From: Planctomycetota bacterium
GTDB lineage: Bacteria > Planctomycetota > SZUA-567 > H5-PLA8
Direction: 5' to 3'
Assembly (NCBI GenBank): GCA_045863855.1
Contig: BTVV01000016.1
Location: forward strand, 16,123 to 80,122
Length of the DNA: 64,000 nt
Below the pieces are notes generated by a model that was given only the letters and a program-made list of their open reading frames with translations, ran no database searches and was not told the origin of the DNA. The number at the start of each line of letters is the position of its first letter. The first letter of the stretch is position 1. Shown here in pieces: positions 36,701-64,000 of the stretch. A program made the position numbers and the translations under genes.

Positions 36701-36754
36701 CATACGGGAATCGAGGAACTTAAAGCCGCGTGGCTCGGAACGCCGAACGGTTGA
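33752..36754 (+). CDS. purL: Phosphoribosylformylglycinamidine synthase PurL with an N-terminal PurS-like region
   Basis: AQTWSEHCRHK, KVETHNHPSAIEPYGGAGTG, GRTGRDGIHGATFSS, SEAQERM, FISGKDSLNN, CHDLSEGGL. Confidence 0.96.
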   Translation: MGTAETTLYRIEVGLREDLPDPAGAGLAGEFKTLGLPAPERARTVRLYWLEGPFERAQMEAVARELFSDPVTERCAIDAPVYATNGQAVRSVEVVRKPGVMDPVVGSIRKALADRGLHPTLIATGRKALFYGNLDHETLRLAGRRILANESIEEIHIDCAAPVHRIRGQAPFVLRMVPLRGKSDAELEQISKDGTLSLTQAEMKSIVAYYEQLGRDPTDVELETVAQTWSEHCRHKTLKGCVEFTGPGGQKKRYENLLKETIVRATESVDHPACLSVFKDNAGVVAFDEQWAVTFKVETHNHPSAIEPYGGAGTGIGGVIRDTLGTGLGAKPIANTDVFCFGLPDTPFEALPAGTLHPRRVMSGVVSGVRDYGNRMGIPTVNGAVHFDPRYVGNPLVYAGSVGLIPRNQIEKAARPGDLIVALGGRTGRDGIHGATFSSVELTSESEAVNSGAVQIGNAIEEKKVLDVMLRARDEGLYSCVTDCGAGGFSSAVGEMGEHTGAEVDLETVPLKYAGLSYTEIWISEAQERMVLAVPPEHWARLQTLCREEDVEATAIGRFASDGQLKLRYRGIAVGEMAMSFLHGGLPKVERKAVWNGPSISGASVVGLGDVIGLVHKASAKVKAERGESLSWVESVWSSDEPKNLLLRILAHPTVASKHRVIRQYDHEVQGRTVLKPLVGVRDEGPGDAAVITPVLGSTKGIALSNGLCPQFTDLDPREMAKLAVDEALRNAVAVGGDPAHTFILDNFSWGRTSRPEQLGSLVLTCEGATEAAIAYGLPFISGKDSLNNEYAFGEKTIAIPGTLLVSALAIVPDVRECVTMDLKRAGNLVFLVGETNGELGASHYNLVTGRSPLDGACPRVDLERAKKMYFILHACIREKLIASCHDLSEGGLAVAAAEMAFAGGLGLLMGLENVPGGTELSDEALLFGESPSRFLIEVEREKCELIQNAFRGLPCACIGSVDENPILAISRPAGPDQVRTLVHTGIEELKAAWLGTPNG

Positions 36755-36853
36755 GCGCGTTTTTCGGAGAATTTATGGAATAGCCGTATCGCGGAGCCAT
36801 CTTTTGGAGGAGCGCCTTCCATTTCGGTTGGAGCTATGGAAAAGGAGATCGTC

Positions 36854-37351
36854 ATGCGCATCATCGACGGCATGTTGGGGGAATATGAACACGAGTGCGG
36901 CACGACGCGCAAGTTGTTGGCGCTGGTGCCTGAGAAAGAGTTTAACTTCAAGCCTCATCCCAAGTCGATGACCTTGGGCATCCTGGCGGGGCATCTGGCC
37001 GAAAACCCGGCCTGGGTCGAAGTGACGCTCAAGCAGGATGTGCTCGACATGGATCCCTCGCAGTATAAACCGTTCGATCCCAAGAGCGTGAAGGAACTGC
37101 TGGAGACCTTCGACAAAAACGTCGCGCATGCGCGCGAGGTGATGAACGGCGCATCGGACGGTGATTTGATGAAGCCTTGGACGATGATGAATCGCGGCAC
37201 GCCGATGTTCACGATGCCCAAGGTCGCGATTCTGCGCAGCTTTATCTTCAGCCACACGATCCACCACCGCGGGCAGTTGAGCGTGTATCTGCGGATGAAA
37301 GACGTGAAACTGCCGAGCATTTACGGTCCGACGGCCGACGTGCCGATGTAG
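36854..37351 (+). CDS. DinB family protein
   Basis: E...TRKLL..VP, FKPHPKSMTLG.LAGH, HTIHHRGQLSVYLR, PSIYGPTAD; AAGGAG RBS. Confidence 0.92.
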   Translation: MRIIDGMLGEYEHECGTTRKLLALVPEKEFNFKPHPKSMTLGILAGHLAENPAWVEVTLKQDVLDMDPSQYKPFDPKSVKELLETFDKNVAHAREVMNGASDGDLMKPWTMMNRGTPMFTMPKVAILRSFIFSHTIHHRGQLSVYLRMKDVKLPSIYGPTADVPM

Positions 37352-41925: not shown

Positions 41926-42173
41926 GGCGTGGCCTCGCGTGGAGCGGACAAAGGATTCGCGTCGGGTTTAGCGGGAGCGCGCGGAAACGTAAAACATAAA
42001 ACGAGTTCCGCAACCGCCGCTTGGGGCCGATAGATCCTTTGTCACGGCTTGCTACAGCACGATTCATCGGGAGAGAGGGGATTCAGGGGCCGTTAGCTAC
42101 TCGCCGGGAACCGAAAGATTTAGGCATTTCCCTTGGGTAGCACGATCAAGGACGGCACGGGGTCGGTCGCTAG

Positions 42174-43910
42174 CTAGCCGAGCGTGGCGTATAGGCGTTC
42201 GAGGAAGGCGCCGCGGGTTTCGCCGGCTCGGAAGGCGGCCGCGGTCTGTGCGGCGGCGTTGAAGCGGGCGGCTTCGCCTTCGGTGATGGGATCGTTCAGG
42301 CGGGCTTGCCAAGCGGGTTCGGCTCCGCGTAGCGCCGTCCATTGCAATCCTTTGAAGCCGCGGTCGACTGGCTTCGCATCCTTGAAATAGATCAGCACGG
42401 CGCCTTGTTCGAGGAGCGCGCGCTGGATGCGTTCGATGGGGACGGCGGGAACGTGCGCGCCTTGCTGTACGGCGAGCGCGGCGGCAGCGCCGGCGGCTTG
42501 ACCGAGCGCCATCCAGCACGGTTCCATGCGCAGGGTGCTGAAGCCGAGGTGCGTGCCGGAGACGGGGACGGGAATCAGCAGATTATCGATCTGCGAGGCG
42601 ACGATGACGCCGTACGGGACGGTGTAGGGCTTGGTGGAGAGGCTGAGGAAGCCGTCGAGATGGCAGCGGCCGTCCTCGCGTTTACGGACGGCGTGCGAAT
42701 CGATGGGGTAGTGGCTGGCGGTGATGCTGGCGGAATGGACAGGCGGGCGCGCGCCTTCCTGAATGGGCAGAGCGTCGTGGGCGGTGAAGAAGTAGCGGCC
42801 CTGGATGCGGCGGCCTTCGCGGACGTAGACCTGGCGCGGAAAGTGGGCGTTGTCGGTGTACTCGTCCTTGGCGAGGCCCCAGCGGCGGCACTTTTCGCGG
42901 AAGGCTTCGGGGAGGGCCGGATCGTTCTGCGCGAAGTAGAGCAGACCCAGCGAGTATTCCTTGAGACGTTGCGCGAAGGCGTCGCGCCAGGCCCAATCGG
43001 CGGTGGGCCAAGGGTAGTTCTCTTCGGGGAGGTCGGTGGAAATAAAGGCCTGGTGCTGGTTGTTGCTGTCGGTTTTGGCGTTGGGGAGGCGGACCATGTT
43101 GACGACGCGGCCGATGCCGTCGAATTCCAGTTCGCCCTGATAGGATCCGGTGATGCGGTTGAGCTTCACGTCGTCGGCGAGCGAAGCGAATTCTGCGCGG
43201 TCGTAGCGCGCGGGCATTTCGATGGGCACGCGGCGCGCGGGGTCGTCGGTGAGGCAGAGGCGGTAGTTGTAGGCCTGGATTACGTCGTCGCCTTCGCCGG
43301 TGGAGCCCGGTCCGACTTCGCCGCCCCAGACCTTGTAGATGCGCCCGGCGAGGGGCTCTTTGAATTCGGCGTGGCCTTCGCGGCAGGTGCGAAACGGAAC
43401 GCCGGCGGCGGCGGCGAGATCGCCTTCGTAGGTAGCGTCGACGAAGACCTTGCCGCAGTAGGTTTCGGCGTTTCCGGTGGCGCGTTCGGTGACGCGCAGG
43501 GCGGAAATCTTCGTTCCATCCACTTCAAGATTCGCGGGCCGCGCGTCGAACTGGCGCTCGAGGCGCACGGCGACCTTGGACTGTTCGGCGAGCATCGCAA
43601 GGAGCACTTTTTCGGCGACGGACGCTTCGAAGTGGTAACCGCCGGAACAGAGGCCGGCTTGTTCGGAATCGGGCCCGTAGGCCGCGGTGTAGTGCGCGCG
43701 GATGCGTTCGACGAATTCGACGAAGAGCCCGGCCGTCGCTCCGCGCGTGGCGATGTCGGTGGCGCCGAGGCCGTTGGCGGGCAGGCCGCCAATGTGCGAC
43801 GTGCGTTCGAGGATGACGGCGGTCGATCCGGCTCGCGCGGCGGCGATGGCGGCCATGATGCCGCCCGGCGTGCCGCCCACGATGACCACGTCGAACGATT
43901 CGCTGCGCAT
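42174..43910 (-). CDS. FAD-dependent oxidoreductase (FAD_oxidored family)
   Basis: DVVIVGGTPGG, DATYEGDL, QAYNYRLCLT, YVREGRRI, SGTHLGFSTLRMEP. Confidence 0.92.
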   Translation of the reverse strand: MRSESFDVVIVGGTPGGIMAAIAAARAGSTAVILERTSHIGGLPANGLGATDIATRGATAGLFVEFVERIRAHYTAAYGPDSEQAGLCSGGYHFEASVAEKVLLAMLAEQSKVAVRLERQFDARPANLEVDGTKISALRVTERATGNAETYCGKVFVDATYEGDLAAAAGVPFRTCREGHAEFKEPLAGRIYKVWGGEVGPGSTGEGDDVIQAYNYRLCLTDDPARRVPIEMPARYDRAEFASLADDVKLNRITGSYQGELEFDGIGRVVNMVRLPNAKTDSNNQHQAFISTDLPEENYPWPTADWAWRDAFAQRLKEYSLGLLYFAQNDPALPEAFREKCRRWGLAKDEYTDNAHFPRQVYVREGRRIQGRYFFTAHDALPIQEGARPPVHSASITASHYPIDSHAVRKREDGRCHLDGFLSLSTKPYTVPYGVIVASQIDNLLIPVPVSGTHLGFSTLRMEPCWMALGQAAGAAAALAVQQGAHVPAVPIERIQRALLEQGAVLIYFKDAKPVDRGFKGLQWTALRGAEPAWQARLNDPITEGEAARFNAAAQTAAAFRAGETRGAFLERLYATLG

Positions 43911-57845: not shown

Positions 57846-60800
57846 ATGAGTCGATCCTTGACCTTCGCGGCATGGGTGCTCCTGGTGGGATCCGTAAGCC
57901 TTATGGGCTGCGGTGACCGCAAGGGCGACCTGGGTGCCGTGCACACCGACGCGTCAACGGTGGCCTACCCGGAGGAGACGGCGGCGCCTGCTGAAGTAGC
58001 GGCGGCTTCGTCGTCCGATACGGGTGCGGTCGCACCGGTGGAAGCTCAGCCGAGCGCCGTGGCGATGCAGGCCGAACCTGCTTCGTCGAGCGCTGCTCCG
58101 GCGGGCGAGACCGTGGCGCTGCCGGCCGAGACTTCGTCCAAGCCCGTGGGCGTGACGGCTCCGGTGGGCGTGACGGCTCCGGTGGGCGAGACGGCGGCTC
58201 AGCCCGGAACCGAGGCGGCTGCGGTCGAAACTGCCGGCCAGCCCGCGACGGAAGTGGCGCTTGCGCCTGCCGCTCCGGTTGGAGCGCCGGTGGCGGGTCC
58301 TGAAGACGAGAAGACGCCTGCGCCTGCTCCCGAGCCGACGCCCGCGCCCGCGCCTGGCCAGGAAACGCTGGAAGACCGCGCCACGCGGTTGCTGGAAGAC
58401 GCCAAGAAGACGCGCACGCTGGACCAGCAGGCCGAATTGGTGCAGGCCGACAAACTGATCGAGGCGGGCAAGAAGCTTTTCGACGACCTGTACTACGAGA
58501 AGTCGCTGGAGTACTTCGAAAAGGCCGTGGCCTTGGATCCGACCAACCGCAAGGCACAGGAACTGCTTGCGCAGAACCGCGCGCTGTTGGGCTTCCATAA
58601 GGATCGGCTTGGCCAGAAGCTGCGCGATTTGGAAAACGTAGAGCGGGTCAAGATTCAGGCTTCGCTGGTGGCGCTGGCCAATGCCTTCGAAGAAGCGCGG
58701 AAGTACGAAGAGAAGGGCAGCCAGATTCCGCTGGAACTGGAAGGTTCCGACGAAGAAGACATCCTCGCCACGCAGCTCGAACAGTTGCGCCAGGCGCAGG
58801 ACCGCTATCGCCGCGTGAAGGAAATCGTGAACTGGATGCCGCCGCCGGTGGATTTGCCTGAGATGCGCCGCCAGGTGGACGAGGCGTTGTTGCGCGTGCG
58901 CCAGAAGTTGGCGGACAAAGATGACGAGATCAGCTTCTTGCGCCGCAAGCGCGCGCTGGAACTGGCCGAGCAGACGCGGATGCGCGAGACGGAGTTGTTC
59001 AAGGCGCGCATTCAGAAGCTGATGGATCAGGTCGGCGATTTGTATACGAAGGGCGAATACACGGCGGCCGAACGACTGGCCGGTCGCATCCTGCAGCTCG
59101 ATCCGTTCAATTCGGACGCCGAAGGCTGGCGGCGCAAGGCGCGGGCTTCGCACCTGCGCGTAGACGCGGAGGACATCGGTATTCAAGCCAAGGAGCACCA
59201 CATGCGCTCCTGGGAAGATGTCGAAGCGGCGAACATTCCGTACGGCGATCTGCTTACGTATCCGCCGAACTGGGACGAGATTGCGCGCCGGCCCGACCGC
59301 ATGGCCATCGGCAAGACGAAGGTGGACGAACAGTGGAAGCAGGACATCAAGAAGAAGTTGCAGCGCAAGGTCAGCTTCGAATTCGTGGACACGCCGTTGG
59401 ACGAAGCGATTACCTTCCTGCGCAGCTTGACGAACGTGACGATGATTGTCGACCCCAAGGTGCTCGAAGGCGGGGCGGCTCCGATCAATCTGCGCGTGAC
59501 GGACATGACGCTGGAGCTGGCCTTGGAGTGGATTCTGCGGCTGGCCGAGCTGGATTACGCCCTAAAGGATAACGCGGTTTTCATCAGCAAGCGGACGTCG
59601 CTGGTGGAGGATGTCGAACTGCGTATCTACGACGTGAGCGACTTGACGCAGACGGTGCCGGATTTCCCGGGACCGGATTTCCAGCTCGTGACGGTCGGCG
59701 ACGATCCTTCGGGCGGCGGCGGTGGCGGTCCGATCAATCCGTTCATGGCGCCGACGGCCACGGCGGCTCTGACGCCGCAGACGATCGCGGACATGATCCG
59801 CAACCGCGTGCAGCCCGATAGCTGGGACCCGAACCAGGGTACGAGCATCGAAGAGCGCGCGGGCAAGCTGGTGGTGATGCAGCGCCCCGAAATTCATGCG
59901 CTGGTTAACCACCTTCTTTCCAACTTCCGCACGACGGCGCGGCTGATGGTGAACATCGAAAGCCGCTTCCTGAGCATCCGCGAGGCGTACCTGGAAGACA
60001 TCGGCGTGGAATTCCAGGGCTTGGATCCGAACGTGCTGTTCGGCGACTTCGGCGACGTTTCGCGCGTGCTCTCTCCGACGCCCGGCGACCCGCTGGCGGT
60101 GCAGCCCCGCTTGCCCGGTAACGGCGACGGGACTCCGGTGAACGTTCCGTTCCCCGGCTTTACCAACGGTCCGGACAGCCTGTACTCGGGTTCGTTCAGC
60201 CAGGTGGGCGCGATCCTGAACCATACGCTGAACTTCTTCAGCAACGATCCGACGACGATTTCCGGCCGGGACGGCGCGAACCGCATCCGGCAGGGTGGTC
60301 TGTCGGCGCAGTTGACCATCCTTAATAACGCGCAGGTCCAGGCGTTCATCCGTGCGTTGGGCGTGCGCGAAAACAGCACGACGCTGGTGGCGCCGCGCCT
60401 GACGGTCTTCAATACGCAGCGCGCGCATATGTTCTTGGCGCGGCAGCAATCGTACATCGCCGACTATGAAATCAGCGGCGACAGCTACGACCCGATCATC
60501 CGGCAGTTCCTGGTCGGGGTGGTGCTGGACGTTCGCCCGACGGTGTCGAGCGACCGGCGCTACGTGACGCTGGAGCTTCGCCCGACGGTGACGGAACTGG
60601 CGAACTTCCAGACGCGGCAGATCGACAGCTTCACGGTGCAGCAGGGCGGTAACGTGATCATCCCGATCTTGCTGAGCTTCCCGGTGCAGTTCCCTGAACT
60701 TTCGATCCAGCGCGTGCGCACGACGGCGACGGTGCCGGACGGCGGCATCCTGCTGATCGGCGGTCTGTACCGCAACATCAAGTTCAACGCGGAGAACGGC

Positions 60801-60935
60801 GTGCCGTTCCTCAGCGATCTACCGGTGGTCGGCCGCCTGTTCCGCTGGAACGTGGTGGACAATGCGAAGACTAATTTGGCGATTCTGGTCAGCCCTCGCA
60901 TCATCCTCTTCAGCGAGGAAGAAGCGAAGCTGTAA
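57846..60935 (+). CDS. Secretin-family protein 1 (GspD/PilQ-like; predicted lipoprotein with a TPR/coiled-coil N-terminal extension)
   Basis: Lipobox LMG|C; STN/N0-like VSFEFVDTPLDEAI; N3-like GKLVVMQRPE; secretin motifs APRLTVFNTQRA, GVVLDVRPTVS, TTATVPDGG, VPFLSDLPVVGRLF, ILVSPRII. Confidence 0.9.
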   Translation: MSRSLTFAAWVLLVGSVSLMGCGDRKGDLGAVHTDASTVAYPEETAAPAEVAAASSSDTGAVAPVEAQPSAVAMQAEPASSSAAPAGETVALPAETSSKPVGVTAPVGVTAPVGETAAQPGTEAAAVETAGQPATEVALAPAAPVGAPVAGPEDEKTPAPAPEPTPAPAPGQETLEDRATRLLEDAKKTRTLDQQAELVQADKLIEAGKKLFDDLYYEKSLEYFEKAVALDPTNRKAQELLAQNRALLGFHKDRLGQKLRDLENVERVKIQASLVALANAFEEARKYEEKGSQIPLELEGSDEEDILATQLEQLRQAQDRYRRVKEIVNWMPPPVDLPEMRRQVDEALLRVRQKLADKDDEISFLRRKRALELAEQTRMRETELFKARIQKLMDQVGDLYTKGEYTAAERLAGRILQLDPFNSDAEGWRRKARASHLRVDAEDIGIQAKEHHMRSWEDVEAANIPYGDLLTYPPNWDEIARRPDRMAIGKTKVDEQWKQDIKKKLQRKVSFEFVDTPLDEAITFLRSLTNVTMIVDPKVLEGGAAPINLRVTDMTLELALEWILRLAELDYALKDNAVFISKRTSLVEDVELRIYDVSDLTQTVPDFPGPDFQLVTVGDDPSGGGGGGPINPFMAPTATAALTPQTIADMIRNRVQPDSWDPNQGTSIEERAGKLVVMQRPEIHALVNHLLSNFRTTARLMVNIESRFLSIREAYLEDIGVEFQGLDPNVLFGDFGDVSRVLSPTPGDPLAVQPRLPGNGDGTPVNVPFPGFTNGPDSLYSGSFSQVGAILNHTLNFFSNDPTTISGRDGANRIRQGGLSAQLTILNNAQVQAFIRALGVRENSTTLVAPRLTVFNTQRAHMFLARQQSYIADYEISGDSYDPIIRQFLVGVVLDVRPTVSSDRRYVTLELRPTVTELANFQTRQIDSFTVQQGGNVIIPILLSFPVQFPELSIQRVRTTATVPDGGILLIGGLYRNIKFNAENGVPFLSDLPVVGRLFRWNVVDNAKTNLAILVSPRIILFSEEEAKL
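58143..58196 (+). repeat. In-frame 18-bp tandem repeat, three copies (PVGVTA-PVGVTA-PVGETA)
   Basis: CCCGTGGGCGTGACGGCT / CCGGTGGGCGTGACGGCT / CCGGTGGGCGAGACGGCG. Confidence 0.9.
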
Positions 60936-61005
60936 ATGCCGGTCCGGAACGGTCCGGCGGGCAGTGGATGAGCTTGGGACGTAATTGAAAGAGGGTACAG
61001 CCACC

Positions 61006-63834
61006 ATGCATAGCGGTGTGACCCAGTGGATCCGAGCGGGAGTCGTAGCGGGCGCCTTGGCCGTAGGCTGGGGCTGGACCGCAGGCGCCCAGGCCCAGGA
61101 AACGGCTCCCGAGCCGGCTCCAGCCCCGGCCCCGACAACGGGCTTGGAAGGACAGCTCGATCAGGCCGAAGCGGCTCAGAAGCGGCTGCGCGAGGAAATC
61201 CAGACGCAGGCCGAGTCGCATTTCCAGGCCGGTAAGCGGCTGTACGAGAACTTCGAATACGACGGCGCGCGCGCCGAGTTGGAGCGGGCGGTTTCTTTGG
61301 ACCGCGGCCATGCGGACGCCAAGAAGCTGCTGATCCAGGTCAACGACGTGCTGGGCCATCGCCAGGACCGGGTGCGCTCGGCGGTCGAACGGCTGCACGG
61401 CGCGAGCAAGATCGCGATTCAGGAGCGCTTGGTCGAACTGGACAACCAGATCGACTGGGGCAACCGTTTCGTGCGGCAGGCGACGGACGACGTGGAACTG
61501 ACCACAGCCGACCGGATTCGCCGGCTGGAGCAGGCGTTACAGGCGTACGAGCGCGCGCGCGAGCTGGTGAAGTGGATGCCGCCGGACGTAGACGTCGAAG
61601 AACAGCACAACCTGGTGGTGCGCCAAATTCGCGAGTCGCGCCGCTCGATCGAAGAGTTGAAGGTTCAGCTCCACGAGCAGGACCGTGAAGTTTCGGCCCG
61701 TTTGGCCGAAGCGCGCAAGGCGGAAGAACGCCGGCTGCAGCAGCGCAAGGTGGACGTAATGCTGGACCAGGCTCGCGCGCTCTTCGAACGCGGCGAATAC
61801 GCCAAGGCCGAAGGGATGGCGTCGAAGATCCTGGAGACCGATCCGACGAACGCCGAAGCGCATGCGATCGAAGCGACCGCGCGCGACCGCAAGCACATCA
61901 AGCGCCGCACGTGGATCGAAGAAGAGCAAACGCACCAGTTCGCGCTGCAGCAGAACCGCGTGGACCGGATGATGATTCCGCATTCGGATTACCTGATTTA
62001 TCCGGAGAACTGGGCCGAGATCGCGCAGCGGACTTCCGATTCGGGCAAAGCCCGCGCGGAAGAACCGTGGAAGGAAGAAGTGCGCAAGAAACTCGCGCGC
62101 CGGGTCAGTTTCGAATTCGTTGACACGCCGCTTGAAGAAGCGCTGGCCTTCCTTAATTCGCTGACGAAGGTCAACATCATCCTGGATCCGCGCGTCGCGG
62201 CCGAAAACGCGGGCAAGCTGCCGATCACGCTGCGCGTGGCGGACATGGACATGCAGACGGCGCTGAAGTGGATTCTGCGCTTGGCGGAGTTGGATTACGA
62301 CCTGCGTAACCAGGCCGTGTTCATCACCAAGAAGCAGAACCTTTCGGCGAACGTGGAGCTGGAGATTTACGACGTCCGCGACCTGACGACGACGGTTACG
62401 GACTTCCCCGGCCCGCGTATCGAGATGGGCGTGCAGGCACAGGGCGGCGCTCCGGTCAATCCGTTCGCTGGCCCCGCAGCCGCGACGACGACGCTCGGCG
62501 CGCCGGACCTGGCGCAGTTGATTCAGGAACGGCTGTTGGCGGCGGACTTCGCCGATCCGGCGACGTCCATCCAGGAGTCGGGCGGCAAGCTGGTAGTGAT
62601 GCAGCGCCCGGAGGTGCACGAGAAGATCCGGCAGTTGCTGCGGAGCTTCCGCGAGACGCAGACGGTCCAGGTGCTGACGCAGGTTCGTTTCATCGATGTG
62701 TCGGAAGGCTTCCTGGAAATGATCGGCGTGCACTTTACGGGCCTGGATGCGCCTCCCGGCGATCCGGGTATTCCGTTCGCGCGCGTCGATCCGCTGAATC
62801 AGCCTTCGAAGTACGGCCTGTTCCCGATCGGCGGCGGTCCGGGTCTTACGCCTCCGCTGCCGGGCGACGTGCTGCCTTCCCCGGCGTTCCAGTTCCAGGA
62901 TTCGGTGGATCCGGCGACGGGTCTGTTCCGCCCGCCGTTCCATTTCGACGTGGGTCCGCCTTCGAGCAATCCCGGTCCGCGCCAGCCGCTGTTGCTGCGC
63001 CCGCGCTTGGACAGCAACTTCCCGGTTCGCGGCAACGCGACCTTCGGTCCGGCCAACGCGCCGGCCGGTATCCGCCGCCAGTGGTACGAAAAGGCGTTCG
63101 GCTCGCCCACCTTGGTGCAGGGTATCATTCAGAACTTCGTAAACACGCTGGGCGGGGCCGGTCCGCTGGGCGCTGCACTGACGGCTCAGCCGTTCGGCAA
63201 CCAGGGTGCGATCTTCCAATTCCGGTTCTTCCATAGTTTCCAGGCCAGCGCGGTGGTTCACGCGTTGCGCAAGGATCAGAATGCCGACCAGTTGCTCGCG
63301 CCGAAGCTGATGCAGTTCAACAATCAGCGCGCGCATATCATGGTCGCGCAACAGCGCAGCTACATTGCCGACTACGACGTATCGGGCGCGGTCTTCGACC
63401 CGGTCATCCGCGCGTTCCTGATCGGCGTGGTGCTGGATGTGAAGCCGACGGTGAGCCACGACCGCAAGTACATCACGCTGGACGTGCGGCCGGGGACGGC
63501 GGTGGAGTTGACGCCTCCGCAGATCCTGTTTATCAGCAACGGGCTGGACGTGAACAACCCGCTGGGCAACATCAACCTGCCCATCGAGTTGCCGAACATC
63601 GAACTGCGCAGCATCAATACAACGGTTACGGTGCCGGACAACGGTACGCTGCTCTTCAGCGGTCTGATCAACGACCGCAAGATCGACAGCAAGTCGGGGA
63701 TTCCGTTCCTTTCCGATCTGCCGATCGTGGGGCGGCTCTTCTCGAACAACCTGAAGCATCGCGAACGGCGCAATCTGCTCGTGCTGGTCAATGCACGGGT
63801 GGTGCTGTTCGACGAAGAGGAAGAAAAGCTATAA
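61006..63834 (+). CDS. Secretin-family protein 2 (tandem paralog; Sec/SPI signal peptide)
   Basis: Signal ending AQA|QE; VSFEFVDTPLEEAL, GKLVVMQRPE, APKLMQFNNQRA, GVVLDVKPTVS, TTVTVPDNG, IPFLSDLPIVGRLF. Confidence 0.9.
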   Translation: MHSGVTQWIRAGVVAGALAVGWGWTAGAQAQETAPEPAPAPAPTTGLEGQLDQAEAAQKRLREEIQTQAESHFQAGKRLYENFEYDGARAELERAVSLDRGHADAKKLLIQVNDVLGHRQDRVRSAVERLHGASKIAIQERLVELDNQIDWGNRFVRQATDDVELTTADRIRRLEQALQAYERARELVKWMPPDVDVEEQHNLVVRQIRESRRSIEELKVQLHEQDREVSARLAEARKAEERRLQQRKVDVMLDQARALFERGEYAKAEGMASKILETDPTNAEAHAIEATARDRKHIKRRTWIEEEQTHQFALQQNRVDRMMIPHSDYLIYPENWAEIAQRTSDSGKARAEEPWKEEVRKKLARRVSFEFVDTPLEEALAFLNSLTKVNIILDPRVAAENAGKLPITLRVADMDMQTALKWILRLAELDYDLRNQAVFITKKQNLSANVELEIYDVRDLTTTVTDFPGPRIEMGVQAQGGAPVNPFAGPAAATTTLGAPDLAQLIQERLLAADFADPATSIQESGGKLVVMQRPEVHEKIRQLLRSFRETQTVQVLTQVRFIDVSEGFLEMIGVHFTGLDAPPGDPGIPFARVDPLNQPSKYGLFPIGGGPGLTPPLPGDVLPSPAFQFQDSVDPATGLFRPPFHFDVGPPSSNPGPRQPLLLRPRLDSNFPVRGNATFGPANAPAGIRRQWYEKAFGSPTLVQGIIQNFVNTLGGAGPLGAALTAQPFGNQGAIFQFRFFHSFQASAVVHALRKDQNADQLLAPKLMQFNNQRAHIMVAQQRSYIADYDVSGAVFDPVIRAFLIGVVLDVKPTVSHDRKYITLDVRPGTAVELTPPQILFISNGLDVNNPLGNINLPIELPNIELRSINTTVTVPDNGTLLFSGLINDRKIDSKSGIPFLSDLPIVGRLFSNNLKHRERRNLLVLVNARVVLFDEEEEKL

Positions 63835-63857: not shown

Positions 63858-63894
63858 ACCAAAGCCCGGGGCCAAACCCCGGGCTTTGGTGTTT
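63858..63894 (+). terminator. Rho-independent terminator-like hairpin after the secretin pair
   Basis: Perfect 14-bp stem ACCAAAGCCCGGGG / CCCCGGGCTTTGGT, 5-nt loop, followed by GTTT. Confidence 0.85.
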
Positions 63895-64000
63895 CTGAGG
63901 TTCAAGTTGGAATACTGGGGTAGTAGTTGATGTGTGTGTAACCCAATTTATAGATTAGCTTTGTATGGATACGGACAGGCCTGAGTACACGCATTTGCAG

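Follow-up and report, generated by a model that had tools for sequence, protein, structure and literature searches.

A tandem pair of secretin paralogs in a Planctomycetota genome, from a family predicted to build an alternating two-subunit outer-membrane ring

Two adjacent secretin genes, here called A and B, lie near the end of a 64,000-nucleotide stretch of a Planctomycetota bacterium genome (contig BTVV01000016.1 of assembly GCA_045863855.1), which is referred to as the window. Both genes are intact, lie on the plus strand and are separated by 70 bp. The original prediction described two co-oriented genes for proteins of 1,029 and 942 aa with this spacing, and its coordinates are confirmed. 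The features of the pair and its immediate surroundings are as follows, with TPR standing for tetratricopeptide repeat and pLDDT for the predicted local distance difference test of AlphaFold.

57846..60935, plus strand: secretin A, 1,029 aa, with a lipoprotein-type signal, a disordered linker, a helical/TPR stalk and N0-like, N3-like and secretin domains
57846..57911, plus strand: signal peptide of A with the lipobox LMGC and Cys22 at its end, read from the sequence by eye
57912..58361, plus strand: Ala/Pro/Glu-rich disordered linker of A, about 150 aa, predicted to lead from the lipid anchor to the stalk (pLDDT below 50 at residues 17-47 and 49-172)
58371..59360, plus strand: helical/TPR stalk of A, with helices of up to 64 residues (Pfam and AlphaFold model)
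59367..59939, plus strand: N0-like and N3-like periplasmic domains of A (weak STN and GspD-N0 matches; secondary structure)
59946..60932, plus strand: secretin domain of A, with a low-confidence insert at about residues 721-817, an extended second gate hairpin at 914-956 and no S-domain
61006..63834, plus strand: secretin B, 942 aa, with the architecture of A, a cleavable-type signal (AQA at residues 28-30) and a short linker
61144..62094, plus strand: helical/TPR stalk of B (Pfam and AlphaFold model)
62737..63210, plus strand: Pro/Gly-rich insert of B, about 160 aa, between the lip strands and predicted to lie on the outer face, as placed from secretin topology (pLDDT below 50 at 568-635 and 639-764)
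63858..63890, plus strand: terminator-like hairpin (-29.9 kcal/mol, z -3.8), kept with changed stem letters in two genomes of the same genus, G001 and G002

Both proteins are members of the secretin superfamily: each has a Pfam Secretin match (PF00263; 95.8 bits for A and 98 bits for B, above the cut-off of 27.5), an N3-like domain preceding the barrel and an export signal. The start codon of A is supported by a conserved GAAAGGA-type site and by conserved N-termini in relatives. The two proteins align at 37% identity over 907 columns (E = 1e-174), in agreement with the colinearity first reported, and the shared motifs and abrupt C-termini quoted for them are all present. No NCBIfam family cut-off is reached by either protein. 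The best matches in that scan are Amuc_1098 and MshL, both far below cut-off; scores are 114 and 101 bits against 750 for the Amuc_1098 equivalog (NF042912), 83 against 284 for PilQ (TIGR02515), and 78 and 103 against 351 for GspD (TIGR02517). In a Foldseek search with the model of B, the top matches are all secretins.

AlphaFold monomer models have a mean pLDDT of 63.5 for A and 65.4 for B, with a predicted template modelling score of 0.33 each, which makes the orientation of their domains unreliable. Both models contain a signal helix, a disordered linker (~150 aa in A, ~20 aa in B), a stalk made up of long helices together with TPR hairpins, and then N0-like, N3-like and secretin domains. 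In the Pfam scan, B has TPR matches above the cut-off and A has weak ones; STN/N0 matches are weak and confined to A. The TPR-like region proposed to precede an N0/STN-like domain holds for both proteins as a helical stalk, with the Pfam STN/N0 assignment seen faintly and in A only. A low-confidence insert follows the first barrel strand in both models and neither model has an S-domain, as had been predicted; the A and B inserts differ from each other in pairwise alignment.

Evidence on how the two proteins assemble comes from covariation across a family that extends through the Planctomycetota. The family set comprised 383 distinct sequences in 232 groups (genomes or contigs). Of these groups, 127 contain exactly two copies, and their paralogs were paired for mean-field direct coupling analysis, which did not include the 12 groups with triplets or the 93 with a single copy; the median identity of paralogs within a genome is ~45% in the barrel. 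Couplings within single chains reproduce the strand ladders that were expected, along with two-sheet stacking (700-900, 907-1017), and point to a subunit layout of b3-b1-b9-b8 over b4-b5-b6-b7, the labels b1-b9 following what we take to be the usual convention. By strand topology, as opposed to coordinates, the ladders b3-b8 and b4-b7 would join neighboring subunits. In a homomer, such inter-subunit ladders are expected to co-vary within one sequence; in an alternating ring, they are expected to co-vary between paralogs.

The signals of the inter-subunit ladders show up across paralogs, with index sums of 1824 and 1819; in A numbering, the predicted registers set A 843-849 against 981-975 of the partner and A 857-868 against 962-951. 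Across paralogs, the 25 inter-subunit position pairs have a mean z of 0.94, a value reached by none of 20,000 random diagonal sets, as against 0.32 within paralogs (reached by 1,169 of 20,000). Conversely, the 70 intra-subunit position pairs score 1.14 within and 0.29 across. All 14 subsamples preserve this crossover, as do three settings of the pseudocount; full shuffling, repeated 15 times, yields values from -0.31 to 0.21. Among 75 ordered pairs whose copies are spaced or unlinked, the two hetero directions score 0.63 (7 of 5,000) and 0.52 (27 of 5,000), and the two homo directions lie near zero (-0.17 and 0.19). All 49 adjacent pairs taken together give 0.43 across and 0.25 within (131 of 5,000).

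The same registers occur in an independent control of 246 PilQ-like secretins, where sums 1824 and 1819 rank among the top two for each inter-subunit ladder. Intra-subunit peaks in this set also coincide with those of the family (sums 1870 and 1985), and 1807 is tied for second. When PilQ sequences, presumed homomeric, are joined into pseudo-pairs of similar divergence, the within-sequence signal exceeds the cross signal in six of six runs (0.66-0.92 versus 0.04-0.48). By covariation alone, then, the planctomycete family does not show the pattern of a ring of identical subunits.

These comparisons suggest that A and B, as members of this family, probably co-assemble in the order A-B-A-B into one even-numbered outer-membrane ring. 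Across the family, the edge strands of each paralog co-vary with its partner's opposite edge strands, and this holds whichever paralog is taken first. The heteromeric reading, which the original prediction had raised as co-assembly of the two subunits, thereby gains direct though modest computational support at the level of the family, where the cross-paralog covariation is specific to the inter-subunit ladders. Support does not reach significance in the window's own lineage, where the test is underpowered (25 pairs, ~9 effective; 0.26 across versus 0.21 within, 491 of 5,000), so the alternation of this particular pair is carried over from the family.

Several further observations weigh against an alternating ring. 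When only adjacent pairs enter the directional test, the signal is weak (272 and 826 of 5,000) and neither direction alone reaches significance. It was the paired data that first revealed the two registers; the check on the PilQ control came afterwards, and there a competing peak stands four residues from each (0.54 versus 0.68 at 1820; 1.00 versus 1.08 at 1823). Shuffles that keep lineages together preserve some of the signal, with means of 0.48 and 0.56: about half is kept for the outer ladder and most for the inner, with 3 of 17 shuffles reaching the inner value and none of 17 the outer. This retention could reflect interchangeable partners among close relatives, or shared ancestry. Strong cross couplings (z >4) are no commoner than in shuffles (38 versus 34-44); ranking single cross couplings is thus uninformative, and only ladder-level tests were used. 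In one family of genomes (f33), each of eight genomes has one match, which implies that relatives can work alone. In four genomes (G119, G137, G169 and G197), the copies are unlinked, lying 0.6-3.8 Mb apart.

The pair itself is widespread. A barrel-profile census (E <= 1e-45) of 71 Planctomycetota genomes at least 90% complete found matches in 66, with two copies in 45, three in three, one in 18 and none in five; some of the single-copy counts, such as that of G020, are threshold misses. Relatives with usually single or unlinked copies had been named as grounds for giving up the heteromeric proposal, and the counts run the other way (45 of 71 with two copies versus 18 with one). An earlier impression that many relatives are single-copy was mostly an effect of 6-kb flanks, and a wider search found second copies 7-14 kb away. 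Matches occur in 30 of 46 genomes of the source's class, and all 14 other genomes of its taxonomic family have at least two copies; among f4 genomes, 16 of 24 lack a match at the census threshold. The sequence relatives of the pair belong to Planctomycetota and include the cultured Engelhardtia mirabilis Pla133 (L100).

In the 83 genomes whose examined locus holds at least two copies, the copies are always co-oriented. Motor genes lie between them in 41 genomes from 26 families, 33 have adjacent copies, five have spaced copies without a motor and four have triplets; in the source's class, the motor genes directly follow the pair. Most of the operons bracketing a motor carry a HAD hydrolase gene after the second secretin, and often a sulfatase gene before it (L145-L169); the best HAD match in the source genome stands alone at a contig start (C72:337-1074). 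Tandem triplets, mostly without lipoboxes, were noted at L131, L134, L137, L138, L142, L170, L171, L290 and L334, and a large part of the N-terminal stalk is missing from their middle copy; a ring of three subunits would be predicted for them.

Phylogenetic analyses used trees of 130 and 138 rows, a 48-row mixture-model tree and an approximately unbiased (AU) test on 30 rows under LG+G4. A and B of the window belong to two clades, sisters of each other, that each cover four of the class's families and have support of 99 and 96 in the Shimodaira–Hasegawa-like approximate likelihood ratio test (SH-aLRT). Other lineages form first-copy and second-copy sister clades of their own, so that pairs group by lineage, and a constraint placing all first copies together is rejected (AU p = 4e-57). 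The pair is therefore old within the class and does not descend from one phylum-wide duplication. Repeated duplication or early gene conversion would account for the gene trees. Two ancient phylum-wide clades always found in tandem, an arrangement that had been proposed as a check, are contradicted by the AU test and by copies that may be adjacent, 7-14 kb apart or unlinked.

The window ends where contig C16 of the source genome (G000) ends, 110 nucleotides beyond the hairpin. This last segment (63890-64000) is AT-rich, differs from G002 and has no repeat elsewhere in the assembly. G002, which like G001 belongs to the same genus, matches the window at 94% nucleotide identity over 12.9 kb. In both genomes, the pair is followed by genes for a TPR protein of ~1,400 aa, a TPR protein of ~450 aa, exbB, exbD and exbD; the G001 assembly has the large TPR gene broken into two reading frames (L026:12854-17015), possibly through sequencing error. 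Source contig C85 resumes at exbD (93.7% identity over 18 kb), and ~6.9 kb is thus absent from the source assembly between C16 and C85. By the gene order of G001 and G002, the hairpin separates the secretin pair from these motor genes, and it may end a transcript, though not the gene system. The terminator said to close the pair is therefore conserved as a hairpin, and the gene cluster continues past the contig end. Upstream, a promoter-like site is at chance level (one found, 0.8 expected), and the neighboring divergent run is one we take to be ffh-rpsP-trmD-rplS-like.

The original prediction had treated the pair without linked partners, and these can now be named: an ExbB/ExbD motor, TPR proteins and a PilM-like platform. 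The whole unit is found in G022, of the same class, as pilM(N)-X-Y, the two secretins (secA, secB), TPR, TPR, exbB and three exbD genes. In the source genome, the pilM(N)-X-Y block sits on another contig, C12. The first gene of this block has its best NCBIfam match to the Amuc_1101 PilM-like model (191-262 bits, cut-off 650), the second matches Amuc_1100 weakly and below cut-off, and Y has no match. The cluster's exbB and two exbD genes carry, in G002, what are presumably the membrane Asp and Thr motifs of ExbB/ExbD. Among the recurring genes between secretins there is no TonB/TolA-like or vWA transducer, no genome-wide search having been made, and no gsp genes recur as neighbors of the pair.

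By analogy with a proposal for mucin uptake in Akkermansia, the TPR proteins could couple a proton-driven ExbB/ExbD motor to the pore and so pull in large substrates such as glycans, a function that is quite possible, if short of probable. The helical stalks would reach down through the periplasm to the PilM(N)-X-Y platform, and the outer-face inserts would form a two-part cap. The inserts had been suggested to act as a gate or cap; since they fall on the outer face, between the lip strands, a cap is possible and a central gate is not. The link between pore and motor comes from gene order only, and the genome has 12 matches above cut-off to T2SSE ATPases (PilB/PilT/GspE-type) that could power a pilus instead.

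A competing view of function, about as tenable as motor-driven import and compatible with alternation, is that a type IV pilus-like fiber, driven by ATPases encoded elsewhere, exits through the ring, the ExbB/ExbD and TPR genes being mere neighbors. The Amuc_1101-like and weakly Amuc_1100-like genes upstream speak for such a fiber, as do the ATPases, the description of the Akkermansia MUL2 system as pilus-like (PMC13174399) and the f33 loci, which read pilM-X-Y-secretin with no motor genes within the examined 19.5 kb. Against it stand the motor genes, which lie between the secretins in 41 genomes and immediately follow the pair in the class of the window, and a separate pilMNOPQ-like cluster with its own PilQ on contig C4 of the source genome.

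A different account of the pair concerns its signals, which were called by regular expression and by eye. The LMGC lipobox of A and the AxA-type signal of B reported in the original prediction are both present, by eye. In the source's class, the signal ends in Cys in 23 of 26 A-position copies and is of cleavable type in 23 of 25 B copies, with two ambiguous (by eye in each case). This class pattern, together with the absence of an S-domain from both proteins, is what would be expected if lipidated A took over the role of a pilotin and guided non-lipidated B to the outer membrane, an idea compatible with an alternating ring. Other lineages depart from it: in operons that bracket the motor, both copies end their signals in Cys in 22 of 25 (16 by regular expression and six more by eye), the first copy alone looks lipidated in one and the second alone in two. 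Neither copy looks lipidated in G022, L091/L173, L174 and most triplets. Pilotin-independent assembly is also already known for ExeD, according to the available text of PMC6532946. Self-piloting as a general logic is thus unsupported, and piloting by A within this pair is doubtful. The lipid asymmetry is real but local and therefore does not explain the pair; the anchor of A would be a lineage-specific tether, which may help targeting, and not the reason for having two subunits.

Less favorable still is a ring in which A and B mix at variable ratios, with A-A, A-B and B-B contacts all allowed. Its attractions are a residual within-paralog signal (0.65 on the outer ladder; 0.32 over both ladders), the repeated duplication or gene conversion in the trees, which fits interchangeable subunits, and the existence of triplets. 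It is made improbable by the homo directions near zero in ordered pairs, by an inner-ladder within-paralog value of 0.04 and by same-genome paralogs that share only ~45% of their barrel residues. Two specialized pores encoded in one operon, each a ring of its own protein (for example, a fiber pore and a motor-coupled pore), are somewhat more improbable again. The solved secretins that sequence comparison matched all have entries with a single sequence in 12-17 copies, single-copy lineages and unlinked copies exist, the A and B inserts differ, and G005 has a recent extra B copy (L057:6538-9378, contig C50) with no A within the examined 19.5 kb, all of which suits separate rings. Such rings predict inter-subunit covariation within each paralog, as in the PilQ control, and the family shows it between paralogs. 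Finally, the pair might be a recent lineage-specific duplicate or an assembly artefact, and although pairs do group by lineage and not in two phylum-wide clades, a chance verging on nil remains for this view: 37% identity between A and B and clades that each span four families refute a recent origin, and the same gene order in independent assemblies speaks against an artefact.

The alternating ring, if correct, would fix an even symmetry and leave neighboring subunits free to carry different caps, gates and stalks. It would also represent a change from homomer to heteromer that seemingly occurred several times within one family. A more far-reaching scenario, which appears rather unlikely as a whole, is that a single-protein ring was repeatedly converted to a ring in which two subunits (three in one family) obligately alternate, and coupled through TPR scaffolds to ExbB/ExbD, giving a macromolecule importer across an enlarged periplasm and a candidate uptake route of the phylum. 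The operon also offers a concrete gene set for planctomycete macromolecule uptake, a process described as uncharacterized in the consulted parts of PMC5394234 and PMC11131199.

Related loci occur elsewhere in the source genome. A further secretin on C116 scores 136 bits with the Amuc_1098 model, above A and B, a secretin fragment lies on C226, and six TonB-dependent receptors are encoded. Two more pilM-like loci were found (C65:25925-33007 and C116:15493-19437, both plus strand), one beside a prepilin-like gene and the other beside the third secretin. Four or more type IV filament-related platforms seem to be encoded in the genome. Additional TPR-exbB-exbD clusters, one with a 2,725-aa protein, lie at C54:25145-38585 and C90:20644-25214 (both minus strand), with no adjoining secretin in the assembled DNA.

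Parts of the secretins also recur outside complete pores. Very large FecR (anti-sigma-like)/VIT/VWA proteins of relatives (L060:2643-12596, L061:3868-10110, L059:6653-14431 and L064:3863-7717), two of them with zf-HC2, carry close copies of the secretin stalk, N0 and N3 regions without a barrel. These giants might dock on the periplasmic part of the ring, or mimic it, for surface signaling. In the source genome, three membrane-anchored or secreted proteins (C5:6362-8722, C5:75269-76138 and C59:22206-23996, all minus strand) have repeated N0 or N0-N3 modules ~30-50% identical to A/B. Two of them resemble anti-sigma factors, and in some database relatives, modules of this kind are fused to sigma-70 domains. 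Short, isolated pieces of inner-barrel strands are present in other proteins (C135 ~2030-2230, C28 ~41950-42960, C43 ~36740-36920 and L059:3588-5806), with identity reaching 77% over 40-70 aa; some of these proteins have an N3-like domain but no full barrel.

Among characterized systems, the closest parallel is in Akkermansia muciniphila, whose PilQ (Amuc_1098) is a ~900-aa secretin with N-terminal TPRs and the most abundant outer-membrane protein of the species, according to the available part of PMC4960237. Mul genes of this organism have been tied to periplasmic glycan uptake and MUL1 is said to resemble Sus (PMC13174399); mul1A is treated in PMC12570417, as far as its accessible text goes. 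As with Amuc_1098 and MUL2 (amuc_1099-1102), many planctomycete relatives combine a TPR secretin with PilM-like and Amuc_1100-like genes upstream, and the pilM(N)-X-Y block of many lineages resembles amuc_1101-1100-1099. Unlike MUL2, the planctomycete loci have two or three secretin paralogs where one is described, linked to TPR-TPR-ExbB-ExbD-ExbD; their model scores fall far below cut-offs, and the source's pilM-X-Y block is on a separate contig.

The motor half of the locus resembles gene clusters of the Planctomycetota–Verrucomicrobiota–Chlamydiota (PVC) group, which contain a gene encoding TPRs, another that is tolQ-like, two different tolR-like genes and a vWA force transducer in the available text of PMC12204202. 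That text mentions no secretin, whereas the planctomycete loci lack a vWA or TonB-like transducer among the recurring genes between secretins. Planctomycete crateriform structures, outer-membrane complexes of unidentified composition that join both membranes, bear fibers and are linked to dextran uptake, are similar to the proposed ring by description alone, and the consulted part of PMC5394234 does not mention secretins. Two expressed secretins are listed for Kuenenia in the portion of PMC3422733 that was available.

Self-anchoring or pilotin-free secretins have precedents in the liposecretin BfpB, presumably also in HxcQ, and in ExeD. These differ from the pair in being homo-oligomers, and in the literature consulted none is described with a non-lipidated paralog partner. 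The barrel and gate layout of secretins in general is set out in the available part of PMC7545093, and the phrase 'mixed multimers' occurs in that of PMC4604470. A natural two-paralog secretin ring was not found described in the literature searched, which does not extend to most subscription papers, the MUL paper included, or to supplements, where the locus may be described.

Solved secretins (PilQ, GspD, SctC/InvG, RcpA, BfpB and pIV) share with A and B the N0-N3-secretin order and the double beta-barrel, and PilQ-like secretins share the strand registers of the planctomycete family. GspD, with its N0-N1-N2-N3 series, S-domain and gsp operon, differs in that A and B have only N0-like and N3-like domains and no S-domain. 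More broadly, solved secretins are listed as one sequence per ring, whereas A and B have a ~330-aa stalk, long outer inserts, an extended gate hairpin and a predicted alternation of two paralogs. What is new here is the cross-paralog covariation specific to the inter-subunit ladders, seen across the family of a secretin pair that is real and conserved.

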